DNA of 64,000 nt, from the NCBI GenBank assembly GCA_963665235.2, contig CAXXLX010000001.1, positions 4,288,001-4,352,000 of the forward strand. The letters are read 5' to 3'. Numbering within the stretch: position 1 is the first letter of the stretch; every line of letters starts with the position of its first letter. Shown here in pieces: positions 21,260 through 35,576 of this stretch. The DNA is from Candidatus Poribacteria bacterium. Lineage in GTDB: Bacteria; Poribacteria; WGA-4E; WGA-3G. The notes beneath the pieces are model-generated. The model had not been told where the DNA came from. It ran no database searches and saw nothing but the letters and a program-made list of their open reading frames with translations. Both the position numbers and the translations under genes were made by a program.

Positions 21260-21445
21260 TTATACCATTTTTATTAATTATTCTATCATTACCGGTTGTT
21301 GGAAATGAAACGGAGAACGGAAGACACAAACTGGAAGTTTATGCTACGATAAAGAACACAAACTGGAAGTTTATGCTACGATAAAGAACACAAACTGGAA
21401 GTTTATGCTACAAGAAAGAGACATTTTCAATTAGAAATGGTATAA
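21260..21445 (+). mobile_element. MITE family A copy with 3 REP units
   Basis: TTATACCATTT...AAATGGTATAA; three CAAACTGGAAGTTTATGCTAC units. Confidence 0.75.
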
Positions 21446-21514
21446 CTAGTCATAATGGGATGGAGGCTGCCTGAGGAATATCGGCAGCCTCTTCTGATTT
21501 GTAACCGAACTTAA

Positions 21515-21656
21515 ACTCTGGGTCGAGAGAGTGTGTTATCATAATGATTAGGTCGCAGGTTCGAGCCCTGCCAGCAGTCTGAGCATGTGTCATGTGAAGC
21601 CTACTGTAGCTCAGTGGAAGAGCAAATCAAAATGCATTCCAATCCTTATCCAGAGT
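21515..21656 (+). ncRNA. YrlA-like Y RNA, copy 1
   Basis: Terminal stem ACTCTGGGT-C-GAG / CTT-ATCCAGAGT with bulged C; T-arm GCAGGTTCGAGCCCTGC, closed acceptor-like stem, then D-arm TAGCTCAGTGGAAGAGC; rsr downstream. Confidence 0.85.
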
Positions 21657-21665
21657 CGCATTTGT

Positions 21666-21740
21666 GCGGGCCGAAGTATTGTGTTATCCTCCGTTTACTC
21701 TCGGGGCCGGAATCCCGAGCGCAATACACACCTTGTCCGC
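21666..21740 (+). ncRNA. Short (YrlB-like) Y RNA, copy 1
   Basis: GCGGGC-C-GAAG ... CTT-GTCCGC terminal stem with GNCGAAG motif; inner GTATTGTG/CGCAATAC stem. Confidence 0.75.
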
Positions 21741-21762
21741 CATGAAGAAATATTTTTTTAAT

Positions 21763-21792
21763 TTGACAACAGACACCTAAATGTGATATAAT
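21763..21792 (+). promoter_or_regulatory. Sigma70-like promoter upstream of Y RNA pair 2
   Basis: TTGACA-18 nt-TATAAT, immediately followed by a MITE. Confidence 0.5.
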
Positions 21793-21947
21793 AACCCAAG
21801 TTGCTACTTATAAGTTTTTAGACCTGGAAACACCGTCTTTAATGAAAATATGCTGATAATTAGCTAATATTTGTCCGGTTCACTTCCAATTCGCACACAA
21901 ATATGCACAATCTGGAAGATTATGCTACTATGTGGCAACTTAGGTTA
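21792..21947. mobile_element. MITE family B (TIR ACCCAAGTTGC / GCAACTTAGGT)
   Basis: Near-identical copy at 49111-49268; isolated end at 28835-28847. Confidence 0.8.
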
Positions 21948-22030
21948 TAATATATAATTGCTGTATGAAAATGGATGTGCGCTGCCTAAGAAATATTGGC
22001 AGAGCCTCCTGATTCGAAGCCCAACTTAAA

Positions 22031-22157
22031 CTCTGGGTCGCGAGAGTGTGTTACCCCAGCGCAGGTTCGACTCCTGCCAGTAGACCAAGCTTCATGCGAA
22101 GCCTACTGTAGCTCAGTGGTAGAGCAAAACTTCAACGCATTCTGTTCTTATCCAGAG
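22031..22157 (+). ncRNA. YrlA-like Y RNA, copy 2
   Basis: CTCTGGGTCG...GCAGGTTCGACTCCTGC-CAGTAG...CTACTG-TAGCTCAGTGGTAGAGC...CTTATCCAGAG. Confidence 0.85.
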
Positions 22158-22167
22158 CCATATTTGT

Positions 22168-22225
22168 GCGGGCCGAAGTATTGTGTTATCTTTGAAAGAG
22201 CATTCGCAATACACATCTTGCCCGC
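22168..22225 (+). ncRNA. Short (YrlB-like) Y RNA, copy 2
   Basis: GCGGGCCGAAGTATTGTG...CGCAATAC...CTTGCCCGC. Confidence 0.75.
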
Positions 22226-22273
22226 CACCGATTTATAACTGAAGAATTTAAGGTGAAAATATAGGGAGGAACA

Positions 22274-22651
22274 ATGAAAACGTTTTCGATACAAACACTT
22301 ATCGCGCTATTCCTCATCAGCGGCATACATTTTGTTTTCGCAGATTGTCCTGATGAGCAACTAAAGGCTGAAGGTTCGTTTTTCATCAATGAAGCGGATG
22401 AGGCCTATATCTACGGGCAGGCTTCAGTAAGCAATCTCACCTATTGGCCCGCCAAGAACATTGAGCAAGCCCATTGGCCCGCCCTTCTCTTTAAGAGAGC
22501 TTAGATTAGTAGTGACCACTCCGTCAGTTGCTGGCACTACTATGAAAAAGAAAAAGAGACTTTCACCGTTTATTGGGCATACCGGCTGGTTGTCGATGAG
22601 GATGCACGGTATCAGGCGAATCCGCGATATGGTCCTATGATTCTGCTGTAG
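22274..22651 (+). pseudogene. Small secreted protein interrupted by an in-frame TAG at 22502-22504
   Basis: RBS ggagga and signal peptide; frame stays open for 48 more codons after the TAG, ending at the RBS of the next gene. Confidence 0.5.
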
Positions 22652-22662
22652 GAGAAAAAACA

Positions 22663-23637
22663 ATGCGCACCCTTTTTATTATCAGCATACTCTTCATCAG
22701 TATCGTGCCCGTTGCCTCCGCAAAAATCGTGTGGATGGCGTTCTGGGAAATCTGTGTCATGGACGATGATGGCAGCAACCGCCAAAGATTGACACATAAT
22801 GATCGCTATGACACGAAACCACGCTGGTCACCCAATGGAAAGTGGATCGTTTTTCAGGGCGAACAACCTAAGGAAACCAATGAACAAAATCATGATCTGT
22901 TCCTCATGAATATAGATGGAACACAGATACGGAAACTTACCACCTACACAGGGCTTGATGTAAATCCAGACTGGTCCCCCGATAGTCAACACATAGTCTT
23001 TACAAGTACGCGAGGTGATGTGACGAGTCTTCATATCCTGGATGTTGAGACACAAGATGTCCGCGACCTCACGCGCACCCTAAAGGGGCAGGCCGCGGAT
23101 AGCGCGGCTTGGTCTCATGATGGGAAACAGATTGCCTATGTAGGCAAGACTCTAAACCCCTTCACATCCGCCATCTACATCATAGGGGCAGATGGTAAAA
23201 ACCCACGTGCCCTCTTCCGCCCCGTGGTTGCACAGTACCATTCTCCCGACTGGTCGCCGGATGGGAAACATATTCTGTATGGCGAAAAAAAAGCCGTAGG
23301 CAAAATGCGGATTTCAGATAAAATCGTCATTCGCACCGTTAATGGGAATTTGGTAAAGGAATTAGAAATGCCGGCGCTTGCGAAATGGTCAATACAAGCC
23401 GCTTGTTGGATGGGGACGAAACATGTTCTCATTGATGCCATAGAAGACTTCAAAGCCGCTGATGGGGGGCAGAGTGATATCTATCGGTATACACTATCCA
23501 CCGATGAAATCGTCAATCTCACGAAATCAGATAGAACTAACGACGGTTTTCCGGATTGGATAGATGATGGGGCACTAGCTGTTTCTCCTGTGAGCAAACT
23601 CGCCATCCGATGGGCACAACTCAAGCAAATCCATTAA
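22663..23637 (+). CDS. Secreted TolB-like (PD40 repeat) beta-propeller
   Basis: Signal peptide; P.WSPDG repeats; tail LAVSPVSKLAIRWAQLKQ. Confidence 0.85.
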   Translation: MRTLFIISILFISIVPVASAKIVWMAFWEICVMDDDGSNRQRLTHNDRYDTKPRWSPNGKWIVFQGEQPKETNEQNHDLFLMNIDGTQIRKLTTYTGLDVNPDWSPDSQHIVFTSTRGDVTSLHILDVETQDVRDLTRTLKGQAADSAAWSHDGKQIAYVGKTLNPFTSAIYIIGADGKNPRALFRPVVAQYHSPDWSPDGKHILYGEKKAVGKMRISDKIVIRTVNGNLVKELEMPALAKWSIQAACWMGTKHVLIDAIEDFKAADGGQSDIYRYTLSTDEIVNLTKSDRTNDGFPDWIDDGALAVSPVSKLAIRWAQLKQIH

Positions 23638-23664
23638 GACAGTATCACAACTAAGAAGGTTGAT

Positions 23665-24103
23665 TAACAGTAGCAAAAAATCTGTGTTTTTCAGAACATA
23701 AGCTTATGTTACTAAACCTTTTAGGCAATTAAACGTCTAAATTAATGTTTTACATCTGAATGTTCCGCGTTGTGAGTTGTGTTACTTAAACACCATGTAC
23801 AGAGTGCTTAGCGGGCATCCGCCCAATGTTTGCCTGGGTGGGCACAACCTCTGACAACGAAAGTAGCGAAAACCAAGCTTTGATGGAAATAGCAGGCGGA
23901 AATTGTGATAAAAACCTGCTTGGTAGTGTGACTTCGAAGCACGTAAAAAACATCGAACCTTCACAGAAGAAGCAATAAGCGTTCGCTGCCTTGTGTAGCG
24001 AACTTTGGGAGATGACCCCTGGCTGTATTCGTACAGCTTGCAAAACGTGTGTGGAAGTGAAATACATAGTATTCCACGGAAATATACAGTTTAATATCAT
24101 CGG
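23665..24103 (+). mobile_element. Non-coding structured-RNA element, copy 1 (putative non-autonomous IS200/IS605-like)
   Basis: Follows TTGAT and ends ACAGTTTAATATCATCGG; second copy at 24492-25422 shows compensatory stem changes; no TIR and no transposase. Confidence 0.6.
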
Positions 24104-24208
24104 TAACTGATGCCAACACTCACCCAACTGCGCGATGATGCGTTTTCAGCGTCCCAAGAGGCACATAACCGCATGAAACGGGAGATGGCTATCTACAAAA
24201 ATGAACTT

Positions 24209-24340
24209 AATTCTGGGTCGCGGGGATGTGTTACCGGGTCGCAGGTTCGACTCCTGCCAGTAGACCGAGCGTCATGCGAAGCCTACTGTAGCTCAGTGGT
24301 AGAGCACAATATTCAACGCATTCTGTTCTTATCCAGAATT
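24209..24340 (+). ncRNA. YrlA-like Y RNA, copy 3
   Basis: AATTCTGGGTCG...T-arm, acceptor-like stem, D-arm...CTTATCCAGAATT; terminal stem covaries relative to copies 1 and 2. Confidence 0.85.
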
Positions 24341-24346
24341 TTATTT

Positions 24347-24434
24347 GGCGGGCCGAAGTCCTACGTTAACTGCCCGTATAGTAATACACAAAGTGTATCT
24401 ATACTTAAATATCGTAGTACACACCTTGCCCGCT
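24347..24434 (+). ncRNA. Short (YrlB-like) Y RNA, copy 3
   Basis: GGCGGGCCGAAGTCCTACG...CGTAGTAC...CTTGCCCGCT. Confidence 0.75.
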
Positions 24435-24558
24435 GCCTTAAAAAAACGTTAAAAATATAAACCAAACTTAAACTCTGGGTCGAGGATTGATTAACAGTAG
24501 CAAAAAACCTCTATTTTTCTAGGAACATAAGCTTATGTTCCTAAACCTTTTTGAGAAC

Positions 24559-25027
24559 TTGACATACTCTCCCAGCTAAAGCAAGGGAGATTCTTTTAAA
24601 AAGTTCCGCTACGCGTTAGCTATTGGATTGTGGTTTTCAGACGTGTGAACGTCAACGGAGATGCTTGGGCTGTTCCAAGTCTTACTGCCCCTAACTCAAA
24701 GGAATGCCCTTCGTGCTTCGCACCTTCTTTATGCGTTGTGAATCAGTGCTTTGGTATCCAATGCAGCATGACCCGTCTTTTGGATACCGAAAGCATTGCA
24801 CAAAAATGTGGATATTGACTGGGTATCGCCAGAACATCAGCACACAACCCTACCATAGGTTGAGGTTCGGAACTTCAACATTGGTGGCGTTGAAGGTGGT
24901 AATCCGAACCACTGATGATATATATATTATACCACATTTTAATGCAAAAGTCAAATTAAAATTTTAGCTCATGCGCCGCTACTACATCCCCCAGCTAAAG
25001 CACGGGGGTTTTGTAGCGGAAGACTTG
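24559..25027 (-). mobile_element. Non-autonomous IS200/IS605 (IS605-type) element
   Basis: Minus strand: TTTAT|CAAG...CCCCCGTGCTTTAGCTGGGGG left-end hairpin; right end GAATCTCCCTTGCTTTAGCTGGGAGAGTATGTCAA; no tnpA or tnpB ORF; absent from the sister copy. Confidence 0.8.
24926..24954 (-). promoter_or_regulatory. Near-consensus sigma70 promoter inside the IS605 derivative
   Basis: TTGACT-17 nt-TATAAT with extended -10 TG. Confidence 0.7.
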
Positions 25028-25527
25028 ATAAATTTATGTTTTTAATGTTTTACATCTGAATGTTCCGCGTTGTGAGTCGTGTTACTTAAACACCATGTAC
25101 AGAGTGCTTAGCGGGCATCCGCTCAATGTTTGCCTGGGTGGGCATGACCTCTGACAACGAAAGTAGCGAAAACCAAGCTTTGATGGAAATGAGAGGGCAA
25201 AGAAAACGTGAAAAAACCTCTCTGGTAGTGTGACTTCGAAGCACAATAAAAACCTCGAATATTCACAGTATAAGCGTTCGTTGCCTTGTGTAGCGAACTT
25301 TGGGAGATGACCCCTGGCTGTATTTATACAGCTTGCAAAACGTGTATGGAAGTGAAATACCTAGTGTTCCACAGGCTTCAGGCTACAAGCCTGCTCTTCA
25401 ATATACAGTTTAATATCATCGGCGCACATCATCGGAAGCAAGCAGGTTCGACCCCTGCCGGCGCACTTGTGTTTGACGCGCAAGTTTGCCGAGCAATGTC
25501 CGCTGTTTCTTATCCAGAGACACATTT

Positions 25528-25594
25528 GGCGGGCCGAAGTCCTACGTTAACCTATATTTATCCCATATAACCCGTAGGACACACCTTGCCCGCT
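25528..25594 (+). ncRNA. Short (YrlB-like) Y RNA, copy 4
   Basis: GGCGGGCCGAAGTCCTACG...CGTAGGAC...CTTGCCCGCT, 20 nt before the rsr start codon. Confidence 0.75.
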
Positions 25595-25614
25595 ACATTT
25601 CAAAAGGTGACATC

Positions 25615-27261
25615 ATGAGCTATTTAGGGAAATATTCTCCATTGCATCCACATCAGCGGCAGCCGTTGGACGAAAAACAGGTCCAAAATTCTGCCGGCGG
25701 ATACGCCTATCCTGTCTCTATCTGGACAAACTTAGACCGGTTTCTCATTTTAGGGACCGAAGGCGGCTCCTATTACGCCACAGAACAGGATTTGACGAAG
25801 GTCAATGTCGATGCTGTCAAGCAGTGCATTGCCGAGGATGGGGTTCAAGTTGTTGAGCGGATACGTGAGATTTCTGTCTCCGGGCGCGCCCCGAAAAATG
25901 ACCCCGCATTATACGCACTAGCCCTTGCCTTTACCCATGGCGATACGGCAACGAAACGAAAAGTGGAAGAGGTCTTCTGTGATGTCGCACGTATCGGCAC
26001 ACACCTATTCAACTTTGTGGTGTTTGTAGACGGTATGCGTGGCTGGGGCAGGTCGCTACGCCGATTAGTCGGCAACTGGTACCGCACGAAGGACGATAAC
26101 ACCTTGGCGTATCAGGTCCTGAAATATCAATCTCGGAACAGTTGGCGGCATGCGGATGTCCTTGCAAAGTGCCACTACGGTGAAAACCGGGGCATCTACC
26201 GTTGGATAAAAGGGCTTGACACGGATAAGCGTATTGTGCATCGCACCCTACAAAATGAAGAAAAGACAGCTACCGTTTACGAGGCCACCGACGCTTTGCC
26301 TGAATTGCTCGCCGGATATGAGGACCTGAAACGCACAGAGAAACGCGTGGATGTTATCCAGCTCATTGAGAAACATCAATTCACCCACGAAATGGTGCCG
26401 AACGAGTGGAAAAATGAAACGGAAGTATGGGCGGCGTTGCTACAGAACATGCCCGTTATGGCAACGGTGCGAAACCTCGGTAAGATGACGCAAATCGGGT
26501 TGTTGAAACCTTTTGGAGCAGAGGTTCAAACCGTGCTAGAAAGACTCTCCGCTGAGGCGATTCAACGTTCGCGCATCCATCCTATCCAAATCCTTATGGC
26601 GTTGATAACATACAAGGCAGGTAAGGGAGTGAGAGGCAGCTTAACCTGGGAGCCCGTGCCGCAGATTGTTGATGGGTTGGACGCTGCGTTTTATATGGCG
26701 TTCGATAACGTTGAACCGAGCCAAAAGAACACGCTCCTAGCACTTGATGTCTCTGGGTCAATGGCAGGCAGAACTGTGGCAGGATGTGAAGGCTTAACAC
26801 CGCGTAATGCGTCCGCTGCCATGGCACTCGTAACCGCACGCACGGAACCGCATTATCATATCTTCGGGTTTTCAGAAGGTTTTGTGACCCTGCCGATTAC
26901 AGCAAACGATACGTTGGATAGTGCTATTAAAGCTGTCTCTGGATTGCCCTTTGATGGCACCGATTGCGCTCTCCCCATGCTGTATGCATTGGAACATAAA
27001 CTACAGATAGACACCTTCGTCATCTATACAGATAATGAAACGTGGTATGGCGACATTCATCCGAAAACAGCATTGGACAACTATCGGCAAAAGATGGGGC
27101 GACCCGCAAAGTGTGCTGTTGTCGGGATGGTGGCGAACGACTTCTCTATCGCTGACCCAGAGGATGCGGGCATGCTCGATTTTGTCGGGTTTGATACCGC
27201 TACACCTGCATTGCTCAGTGATTTCGCTAAAGATGCAGACATCTCCGATGAAACGGCGTAA
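25615..27261 (+). CDS. rsr: Ro60-related RNA-binding protein (TROVE + vWA domain)
   Basis: QVQNSAGGY, LDRFLILGTEGGSYY, GRAPKNDP, RIGTHLF, KYQSR..W.H.D, RNLGKMT, MIDAS DVSGSM, GTDCALPM, YTDNETW, GMLDFVGFD. Start moved to ATG 25615 (RBS aaggtga). Confidence 0.95.
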   Translation: MSYLGKYSPLHPHQRQPLDEKQVQNSAGGYAYPVSIWTNLDRFLILGTEGGSYYATEQDLTKVNVDAVKQCIAEDGVQVVERIREISVSGRAPKNDPALYALALAFTHGDTATKRKVEEVFCDVARIGTHLFNFVVFVDGMRGWGRSLRRLVGNWYRTKDDNTLAYQVLKYQSRNSWRHADVLAKCHYGENRGIYRWIKGLDTDKRIVHRTLQNEEKTATVYEATDALPELLAGYEDLKRTEKRVDVIQLIEKHQFTHEMVPNEWKNETEVWAALLQNMPVMATVRNLGKMTQIGLLKPFGAEVQTVLERLSAEAIQRSRIHPIQILMALITYKAGKGVRGSLTWEPVPQIVDGLDAAFYMAFDNVEPSQKNTLLALDVSGSMAGRTVAGCEGLTPRNASAAMALVTARTEPHYHIFGFSEGFVTLPITANDTLDSAIKAVSGLPFDGTDCALPMLYALEHKLQIDTFVIYTDNETWYGDIHPKTALDNYRQKMGRPAKCAVVGMVANDFSIADPEDAGMLDFVGFDTATPALLSDFAKDADISDETA

Positions 27262-27264
27262 ACC

Positions 27265-27437
27265 TGTACTGCCATCGGATATTCGGGCCACCCTCTAAAC
27301 CAAGATTGTGATGTAATAACAATCTAAGTGAAAGGAGTATCCAATGGCGAAACGAAAACGAAGAACCTTTGGAATTTCAACGACAACACTTGTCTTAACT
27401 TTGCTAATTTTTGGTCTGAATAACCGTTAGCAGGACA
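27265..27437 (+). mobile_element. Internally deleted IS3-family remnant
   Basis: 26-bp imperfect TIRs with TG...CA ends (TGTACTGCCATCGGATATTCGGGCCA vs TGTCCTGCTAACGGTTATTCAGACCA); RBS plus start MAKRKRRTF typical of IS3 OrfA. Confidence 0.7.
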
Positions 27438-35244: not shown

Positions 35245-35525
35245 GAAAAAACCCTCCCGTTCCAAAACTGGAGACGAGAAGGCTCTATAAGATTACCTTA
35301 CCGTGGTACCACTCCAATTCCCGTTCTCATTTTTTCACTGAGAAAGGGCACTCTTGGGGATGCGATAACGGGCATCACACCGGCTAACCCTACACAACAA
35401 CCCATGCCTTCGGATTAGCAGCTCCAGGGCGACCTTCAGTCGGTAGCACTTGAGGAAACCTCTCAGCCTACGAATTTCCTTCTCTGACAAGCCGAGCCGA
35501 CTTACTCCTCCCCTTCAACGCTTTT
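35245..35525 (-). promoter_or_regulatory. T-box riboswitch (Val, GUC specifier) with terminator
   Basis: Minus strand: AGTA, CAGAGA, GGCTGAGA, GAAG-GTC-G specifier (35431-35433), T-box GAGTGGTACCACG (35302-35314), terminator CCTTCTCGT...ACGGGAGGG-TTTTTT. Confidence 0.9.
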
Positions 35526-35576
35526 TTTGTAAATTTAATTCAACGTGTTACTAAAAATTGTGTTTCCTTTTTTTAA

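Follow-up and report, generated by a model that had tools for sequence, protein, structure and literature searches.

We have analyzed a window of 64,000 nucleotides from a Candidatus Poribacteria bacterium (GenBank assembly GCA_963665235.2, contig CAXXLX010000001.1, positions 4,288,001 to 4,352,000 of the forward strand). Coordinates given here without a contig name are those of this window. It contains two copies of a sequence of ~445 nt, at 23660-24103 (copy 1) and 24487-25422 (copy 2), the second of which is split by a nested element of 474 bp. We conclude that these are very probably non-autonomous mini-transposons (minis) of the IS607 family, in which a left end of ~38 bp and a right end of ~128 bp are retained, together with the omega-RNA scaffold of the TnpB protein of that family. 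An earlier note, made from the sequence alone, had described a mobile, protein-less element with a structured RNA, and this description is upheld.

The two copies are related by four direct repeats, 23742-23890/25042-25190 (97% identity), 23975-24077/25270-25372 (94%), 23655-23692/24482-24519 (87%) and 24081-24103/25400-25422 (100%). After removal of the nested insert, alignment of the copies over 478 columns gives 44 substitutions and 40 gap columns. A comparison of the open reading frames (ORFs) of both copies found none in common, and the flanking sequences are unrelated on the left and on the right. The duplication of ~440 bp seen earlier is consequently real, although its starts had been placed too far to the right. 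The similarity begins 5-10 nt further left, at GAAGG/GAGGA (23655/24482), and TTGAT, at 23660/24487, is the start of the element proper.

The origin of the minis is revealed by a search of the source genome, comprising 5.31 Mb in four contigs. BLASTN showed that the ends of the mini, ~38 nt on the left and 78-128 nt on the right, recur ~1.8 kb apart at several places. When one of these 1.8-kb copies was used in turn as the query, near-full-length matches were obtained at seven places in the genome. The longer, autonomous copy carrying tnpA and tnpB that the earlier note had predicted is thus present in the same genome. The parts shared by parent and mini are the 38-nt left end and the 78-128-nt right end, and the right end overlaps the 3′ end of tnpB. 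On the evidence of sequence homology, the ends of the minis are those of IS607.

The assignment of the parent follows from the proteins that it encodes. TnpA is a protein of 195 amino acids with MerR-type helix-turn-helix and Resolvase domains, scoring 174.8 bits against the model NF033518 ("IS607 family transposase", cut-off 110). TnpB scores 118.8 bits against NF040570 ("guided_TnpB", cut-off 100), and contains the Pfam domains HTH_OrfB_IS605, OrfB_IS605 and Cas12f1-like TNB. The tnpA and tnpB frames are both open in the full copies A and D. In the full copies (e.g., C1:872149-873955, − strand) the open tnpB frame extends over 528-550 codons between stops, and covers most of tnpA, which is read in a different frame. 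Among solved structures, the best relative of the parent TnpB is the mimivirus TnpB-like protein L79, a Fanzor2 (PDB 9b0l; E 1.1e-23, residues 174-369). The parent TnpB has an extra N-terminal domain, and is of the pro-Fanzor type. Because its TnpA is a serine recombinase and not a Y1 transposase, the parent belongs to the IS607 family, and not to IS200/IS605 where the element had previously been filed. An IS200/IS605 (Y1) parent with TTGAT as its transposon-adjacent motif (TAM) was considered, and is ruled out by the serine recombinase and by the variability of TTGAT, which lies inside the element.

Two further features of the full copies were observed. Those at C1:1029459-1031266 and C3:1730-3537 have the same flanks on both sides, so that contig C3 (34 kb) either repeats part of the chromosome or reflects a variant of the assembly. 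In addition, the right end of copy 2 contains an extra hairpin of 24 nt (the GGCTTCAGGCTACAAGCCTGCTCTTC region, ~25378-25401) that it shares with full copies A, B, D, F and G and that is missing from copy 1 and from full copies C and E. The two minis therefore represent different right-end subtypes, though both have a left end of the A/D type.

The sequences into which the elements have inserted are closely similar. The 5′ flanks at 26 distinct sites close with RRGG. The nucleotide at position −4 is A in 20 and G in 6, that at −3 is A in 19 and G in 7, that at −2 is G in all 26, and that at −1 is G in 25 and A in the remaining one. The first five nucleotides of the element itself vary among copies (TTGAT, TAGGG, TTAAG, TTGCG, TAGCG and CTGAG). 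The TTGAT of copies 1 and 2, earlier taken as a 5′ target motif, is a variable part of the element, and RRGG takes its place as the motif of the flank. The right end closes in ...ATCGG, with TCGG present in nearly all of 37 distinct right-end cores, and the next 25 nt on its 3′ side are different in each of the 37.

We also compared public contigs with the region 21400-27300. In contigs of a related population, 24484 is joined to 25421/25422, skipping 936/937 nt. These contigs come from two RNA-library sets and one DNA run of the same study. One of the RNA-library contigs has a length of 386 nt, in which 24308-24484 is joined to 25421-25626. Since these contigs skip copy 2 exactly, the site is empty in the related population. 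It has a single GG core with zero duplicated bases, i.e., no target-site duplication. A repeat search of both copies found no terminal inverted repeats. The earlier statement that the element has neither terminal inverted repeats nor a consistent target-site duplication is thereby confirmed. At copy 1, related-population contigs lose their match exactly at 23659, the last base before the element, and several public contigs match through 24103/24104 and then run into different flanks.

We then asked whether the RNA fold of the minis is conserved. In an alignment of 11 mini sequences, 49 pairs are predicted, 34 of them with compensatory changes. A set of 46 pairs in eight helices is formed in 95.4% of the alignment cells, as against 31%-51% when the partners are slid by 1-3 columns, and 34 of the 46 have changed on both sides. 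Pairing and covariation as high as those observed were reached in none of 500 shuffles. On the opposite strand, the same 46 pairs are formed in 82.6% of cells, and the G-U pairs favor the + strand. The + strand is accordingly indicated as the RNA strand by sequence comparison, in agreement with the earlier note. The stem change quoted there, AGCAGG/CCTGCT (23891-23896/23915-23920) to GAGAGG/CCTCTC (25191-25196/25217-25222), is found at exactly these coordinates. It belongs to hairpin 3, and all six pairs of this helix show compensatory changes in the 11-sequence alignment.

The 3′ part of the minis corresponds to the omega-RNA of a TnpB transposon, as had been suggested. It is homologous to the right end of the full copies, lies on the strand of tnpB and overlaps the tnpB 3′ end. 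Among the 37 distinct right-end cores, 30 predicted pairs are formed in 98.2% of cells (88.3% on the opposite strand), 22 of them with compensatory changes. One long-range helix is formed by GAUGA with the terminal UCAUC. This draws on the loop of helix 6, and thus creates a pseudoknot. A second is formed by AACCGUAU with AUAUAGGUU. Helix 5 overlaps the parent tnpB codons for NGARGIFLRA, and it is here that the change GTTCGCTGC to GTTCGTTGC converts a C-G pair to U-G.

This was one of two C-to-T changes that had been described as preserving pairing in this way. In the other, CCGCCCA to CCGCTCA, family comparison favors a hairpin-loop position for the altered base. An H-type pseudoknot CCGCCCA/TGGGTGG, representing the second stem of the earlier note, was examined as a candidate, but exhibited one-sided changes only, and in one lineage a C-A mismatch. 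The bases concerned are explained by a nested three-way junction, in which U-A replaces C-G as a compensatory change, and the pseudoknot was therefore rejected.

Comparison with Rfam, which the earlier note had suggested, was made with lenient scans, and no known family was found inside the elements. At gathering thresholds there is no match in the minis, and the right-end core has no match at E up to 10, RAGATH-18 included. The sole match above threshold in the window is a T-box leader at 35267-35527 (− strand; 110.1 bits vs gathering 93).

Table 1. Positions of the mini-IS607 copies, their parts and related elements (window coordinates unless contig C1 or C3 is named)
Feature	Position	Strand	Basis or remark
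Mini-IS607 copy 1 (el1)	23660..24103	+	444 nt; nhmmer profile match over full length, 408.7 bits
Copy 2 (el2), left part: left end plus palindrome	24487..24558	+	
Copy 2, right part	25033..25422	+	5′ module 25091-25244, omega-RNA core 25273-25422
Target/TAM-like motif AAGG 5′ of copy 1; last GG the putative recombination core	23656..23659	+	Motif count at 26 sites
Target motif of copy 2, GAGGA	24482..24486	+	Left-junction core GA, not GG; empty-site contigs
Left end common to mini and full IS607 copies; putative TnpA binding region	23660..23692	+	BLASTN 95-97% over 33-38 nt to C1:873918-873955 and C1:1061746-1061781
Imperfect palindrome around AAGCTT	23691..23714	.	Inverted repeat; perfect 24-bp version in copy 2 at 24520-24543
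Three-way junction of 5′ module: outer helix CACC/GGTG, hairpins GTAC..GTGC and CGGGCA..TGCCTG	23791..23840	+	Family comparison
Hairpin 3 of 5′ module, AGCAGG/CCTGCT, A-rich loop	23891..23920	+	6/6 pairs compensatory, 100% of cells paired
Hairpin 4 (GTGT/GCAC), conserved TGGTAG just before	23926..23942	+	4 pairs 100% paired, 2 compensatory
Predicted omega-RNA core scaffold: helices 5-8 and two long-range helices, ends TCGG	23978..24103	+	BLASTN homology to full-copy right end; covariation
Putative guide of copy 1, from 3′ flank	24104..24123	+	Occurs once in genome at 12, 16 and 20 nt
Putative guide of copy 2, sequence of interrupted Y-RNA-like unit Y3	25423..25442	+	First 20 nt once in genome
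Nested 474-bp protein-less element, different family	24559..25032	−	9 further near-full-length genome copies, 89-99% identity
Full IS607 copy	C1 872149-873955	−	
Full IS607 copy	C1 1029459-1031266		
Full IS607 copy	C1 1045784-1047535		
Full IS607 copy	C1 1059977-1061783		
Full IS607 copy	C1 1079912-1081664		
Full IS607 copy	C3 1730-3537		
IS607 copy, internally deleted	C1 74023-75599		

Between the ends of the minis lies a 5′ module of ~230 nt (helices 1-4), predicted to fold into a three-way junction and two hairpins, that is found in the minis only. The module begins with this three-way junction, of an outer helix of 4 bp and two hairpins, in seven of seven lineages, with differing stem sequences. 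We found no homology to the module in six full-length IS607 copies (nhmmer --max, E up to 10), and no Rfam family matched it at E up to 10. In local alignments of the middle ~290 nt of the mini with the parent the score was 12-15, inside the range of 10-16 for 30 shuffles. The earlier proposal of an unusual scaffold class is thus only partly borne out. The 3′ 128 nt is the plain scaffold of the resident IS607 TnpB, and it is the module upstream that is unusual.

What might the module do? We tentatively suggest that it is a new functional RNA domain peculiar to gene-less IS607 elements, turning a scaffold of ~130 nt into a guide RNA of ~350 nt, though we regard this as a possibility rather than a probability. 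Its most likely role would be that of a stabilizing or processing leader, or of a further handle by which proteins bind a guide RNA made outside the tnpB mRNA. This is the least certain point of our interpretation. Were the module such a domain, it may define or protect the 5′ end of the RNA without processing of the tnpB mRNA, and may help the mini to capture the pro-Fanzor-type TnpB of the full-length copies.

The distribution of the minis was examined in related genomes. BLAST with copy 1 gave matches to the right end only, in 2 of 41 relatives and in 20 of 176 genomes of the phylum. With the middle of the mini as query in 173 genomes of the class, its own two copies were the only real matches, the four remaining hits being 25-34 nt in length with E no better than 7e-4. 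From the search with copy 1, two weak longer hits pointed to ORF-less elements of ~460 nt in genomes G109 and G092. An nhmmer profile built from these, together with BLAST, identified full-length minis in five genomes, with two in the source genome (G000), three in G092, two in G109, five in G112 and three in G115. There are further variants, one shorter in G092 and one diverged in G112. When a covariance model was made from the 5′ module alone, it identified 17 copies, distributed over 5 of the 112 genomes of the family, and no other match, 20 candidates per genome being scored under strict filters. Evidently BLAST was too insensitive for the diverged minis, which the profile and covariance-model searches later recovered. 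The genome-wide search for more copies that the earlier note had recommended has thus been made, and has extended the family to four further genomes. A degenerate 31-mer gave 14 loci in four Poribacteria metagenome-assembled genome records of a public genome collection, all already known, and 0 hits in a metagenome collection. In all five mini-bearing genomes, left- and right-end matches also occur ~1.78 kb apart, the spacing of the full-length element.

The same genomes contain "micro" elements of ~280 nt that have the left end and the right-end core with no 5′ module. In G112 and G115 these micro derivatives (e.g., L022:1501-1781, − strand) are built of a promoter-bearing left end, an unrelated sequence of ~90 nt and the right-end core. 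By BLAST count, G112 has at least 10 of them and G115 at least 7.

Could the minis be no more than inert deletion relics of IS607, still movable, with the RNA structure left over from the parent and the 5′ module simply filler DNA? The micro elements, and a plain internal-deletion derivative at locus L109 that still has tnpB codons, show that simple deletion derivatives do arise, and the nested insertion in copy 2 and the lack of a promoter in both copies would be natural in a relic. Yet the module is not derived from the sequence of the parent, and its helices have been kept by many compensatory changes across lineages that can barely be aligned. Such changes indicate selection on the RNA fold, and we consider the relic explanation improbable.

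The position of the copies raises a second alternative. Upstream of rsr (25615-27261), which encodes an orthologue of Ro60 with TROVE and vWA_Ro60 domains, there are four YrlA-like units at 21500-21740, 22017-22240, 24200-24450 and 24459-24485+25423-25605. Their Rfam YrlA matches (36.4, 31 and 27.5 bits) are below the gathering score of 69. A tRNA-like T-arm and a 5′-half segment are common to the units, except that the fourth (Y3) lacks the 5′-half and is split by copy 2. The flanks of copy 2, when joined, are collinear with the neighboring Y units, from which we deduce that copy 2 interrupts Y3. Both minis lie inside this array directly upstream of rsr in the same orientation, and would be co-transcribed with it. 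They might therefore be a host non-coding RNA, for example one that associates with the Ro60 orthologue or serves as its substrate, and merely resemble a transposon end. This is largely refuted, and we judge it very improbable. No Rsr or YrlA match occurs at the 15 mini loci (~3.2 kb each) from the other genomes, the Y3 unit is uninterrupted in the related population, and the ends of the minis are IS607 ends. Least probable of all is a mini-IStron, in which a group I intron bearing IS607 ends would splice itself from host transcripts; IS607 IStrons are known in Clostridium botulinum (bioRxiv 10.1101/2023.11.20.567912), and the element sits in a transcribed RNA gene array, but neither the region nor the minis of three other loci match Intron_gpI or a ribozyme family at E up to 10, only ~230 nt lie outside the guide scaffold, and the full-length copies have no intron.

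Several other features of the locus were noted. A fifth Y-like unit is located ~57 kb upstream, at C1 ~4231500. In related-population contigs (two RNA libraries and one DNA run) the end of Y1 is joined to the start of Y2 (22239/24202), skipping 1962 nt. Either the PD40-repeat gene (22663-23637) and copy 1 are not between Y1 and Y2 in that population, or the contig collapses a repeat. Between Y0 and Y1, at 21763-21792 (+ strand), there is a 12/12 match to a σ70-type promoter (TTGACA, 18 nt, TATAAT, with TG), which faces the Y array, both minis and rsr.

The nested element within copy 2 has hairpin ends, TCTCCCAGCTAAAGCAAGGGAGA and TCCCCCAGCTAAAGCACGGGGG. Its ends of 47 nt and 114 nt are common to elements of ~1.44 kb that contain, on the opposite strand, a tnpB-like ORF of at least 332 amino acids. 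Its parent is a tnpB-only element of IS200/IS605 type, ~1.44 kb in length, with the tnpB sense on the − strand. There is an 11/12 promoter match on the − strand of the nested element, at 24954-24926.

Returning to the interpretation of the copies as IS607 mini-transposons, we propose the following mechanism. The serine-recombinase TnpA of a full copy (A or D) would excise the mini and insert it in trans. Mobilization of this kind is suggested by the 17 copies at different loci in five genomes and by the empty site. Crossover at the GG core inside the RRGG site would leave no target-site duplication. The + strand would be transcribed, in this locus probably by read-through of the Y-RNA/rsr operon, and elsewhere from a retained tnpA promoter. 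The minis of G112, G115 and G092 keep this promoter (TTGACA-17-TAATACT, read from the alignment), and its position is occupied in copies 1 and 2 by the AAGCTT palindrome. The RNA would fold into a pseudoknotted scaffold of ~130 nt, with a 3′ end extending into the flank as a guide of 16-20 nt. TnpB supplied in trans would then cleave the donor joint left empty (RRGG followed by the flank), and recombination would copy the element back. For copy 1 the target of TnpB would be AAGG + TAACTGATGCCAACACTCAC. The occupied site would be spared through the TCGG of the right end, and the guide would match only the empty site of its own mini, both guides being unique in the genome. We infer the transcription, the binding by TnpB and the cleavage from the homology and the predicted fold. 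Contigs from RNA libraries span the right end and continue into several different flanks, though contigs cannot show ends, strand or level. In two RNA libraries the depth of the right-end and Y-RNA bins exceeds that of the neighbor genes, but contig depth is no measure of expression and the right end is multicopy.

A number of observations weigh against this interpretation. The left junction of copy 2 is GA instead of GG. The folding energy of the single sequence is unremarkable (z = −1.21 for the + strand and −1.90 for the − strand), and the covariation comes from about six independent lineages. The absence of any relative of the 5′ module from the full-length elements means that the guide RNA of the parent does not include it, and its function is a guess. 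A promoter scan found no σ70-like promoter on the + strand inside copy 1 or copy 2, so that these copies would depend on read-through from the Y-RNA/rsr locus. The RNA evidence consists of contigs only, and an RNA library may contain DNA. Lastly, the nested insertion in copy 2 and the promoter missing from both copies suggest that the two may be decaying.

If our interpretation is correct, full-length, ~445-nt and ~280-nt forms within the same genomes, together with a precise empty site, provide a natural test set. RRGG would be the target motif for a TnpB that is close to the eukaryotic and viral Fanzor2 lineage, and the 5′ module is a candidate RNA domain supported by covariation that might find use in the engineering of compact editors. 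The rsr/Y-RNA locus of this sponge symbiont is also undergoing remodeling by such elements.

It is instructive to compare the minis with known systems. Transposons that have no genes and yet carry a guide RNA are already documented for IS200/IS605, where protein-less PATE-like elements with omega-RNAs have been described in Geobacillus stearothermophilus (Meers et al., 2023, PMC10055086); what we have here would be the IS607 form. Like the minis, the PATE-like elements are gene-less and keep their ends and a flank-guided TnpB RNA, and they need TnpA and TnpB in trans, as the minis probably do. They differ in moving by the Y1/HUH "peel-and-paste" mechanism, with subterminal hairpins and a TTGAT-type TAM, whereas the minis have serine-recombinase IS607 ends that lack hairpins, a target of RRGG with a GG core, and an added 5′ RNA module. 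In literature consisting mostly of abstracts, we found no description of a natural gene-less IS607 element with a guide RNA, or of such a 5′ module, though the IS607-locus tables of the preprints might list some.

Among IS607 elements, CboIStron has a GG core, a TAM of TGGG that is also the target of TnpA, and a TCGG right end for self-avoidance, and a 40-bp left end with a 60-bp right end is enough for its excision (bioRxiv 10.1101/2023.11.20.567912). ISXfa1 has GGG, and not CGG, as its TAM, and a scaffold of 144 nt (bioRxiv 10.1101/2023.08.09.552727). The minis resemble both in a GG-containing TAM that is the target of the transposase, a right end with CGG for self-avoidance, the lack of terminal inverted repeats and target-site duplication, and a scaffold of ~130-145 nt at the right end. 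They differ in the TAM, which is RRGG (mostly AAGG) in place of TGGG or GGG. Moreover CboIStron and ISXfa1 code for proteins and the mini-IS of Cbo is man-made, whereas the minis described here are natural and gene-less.

The IS607 TnpB of ISFba1 uses reRNAs derived from RAGATH-18, with AGGAG or GAGGG as TAM (PMC11061315). Like the core of the minis, the RAGATH-18 reRNA is a guide RNA for an IS607 TnpB with a G-rich TAM. However, it lies wholly downstream of the gene, while the core of the mini type overlaps the 3′ end of tnpB and matches no Rfam family. Finally, the likeness to the Fanzor2 or "pro-Fanzor" clade of IS607 TnpB proteins (PDB 9b0l) resides in the TnpB of the parent, and not in the mini itself.

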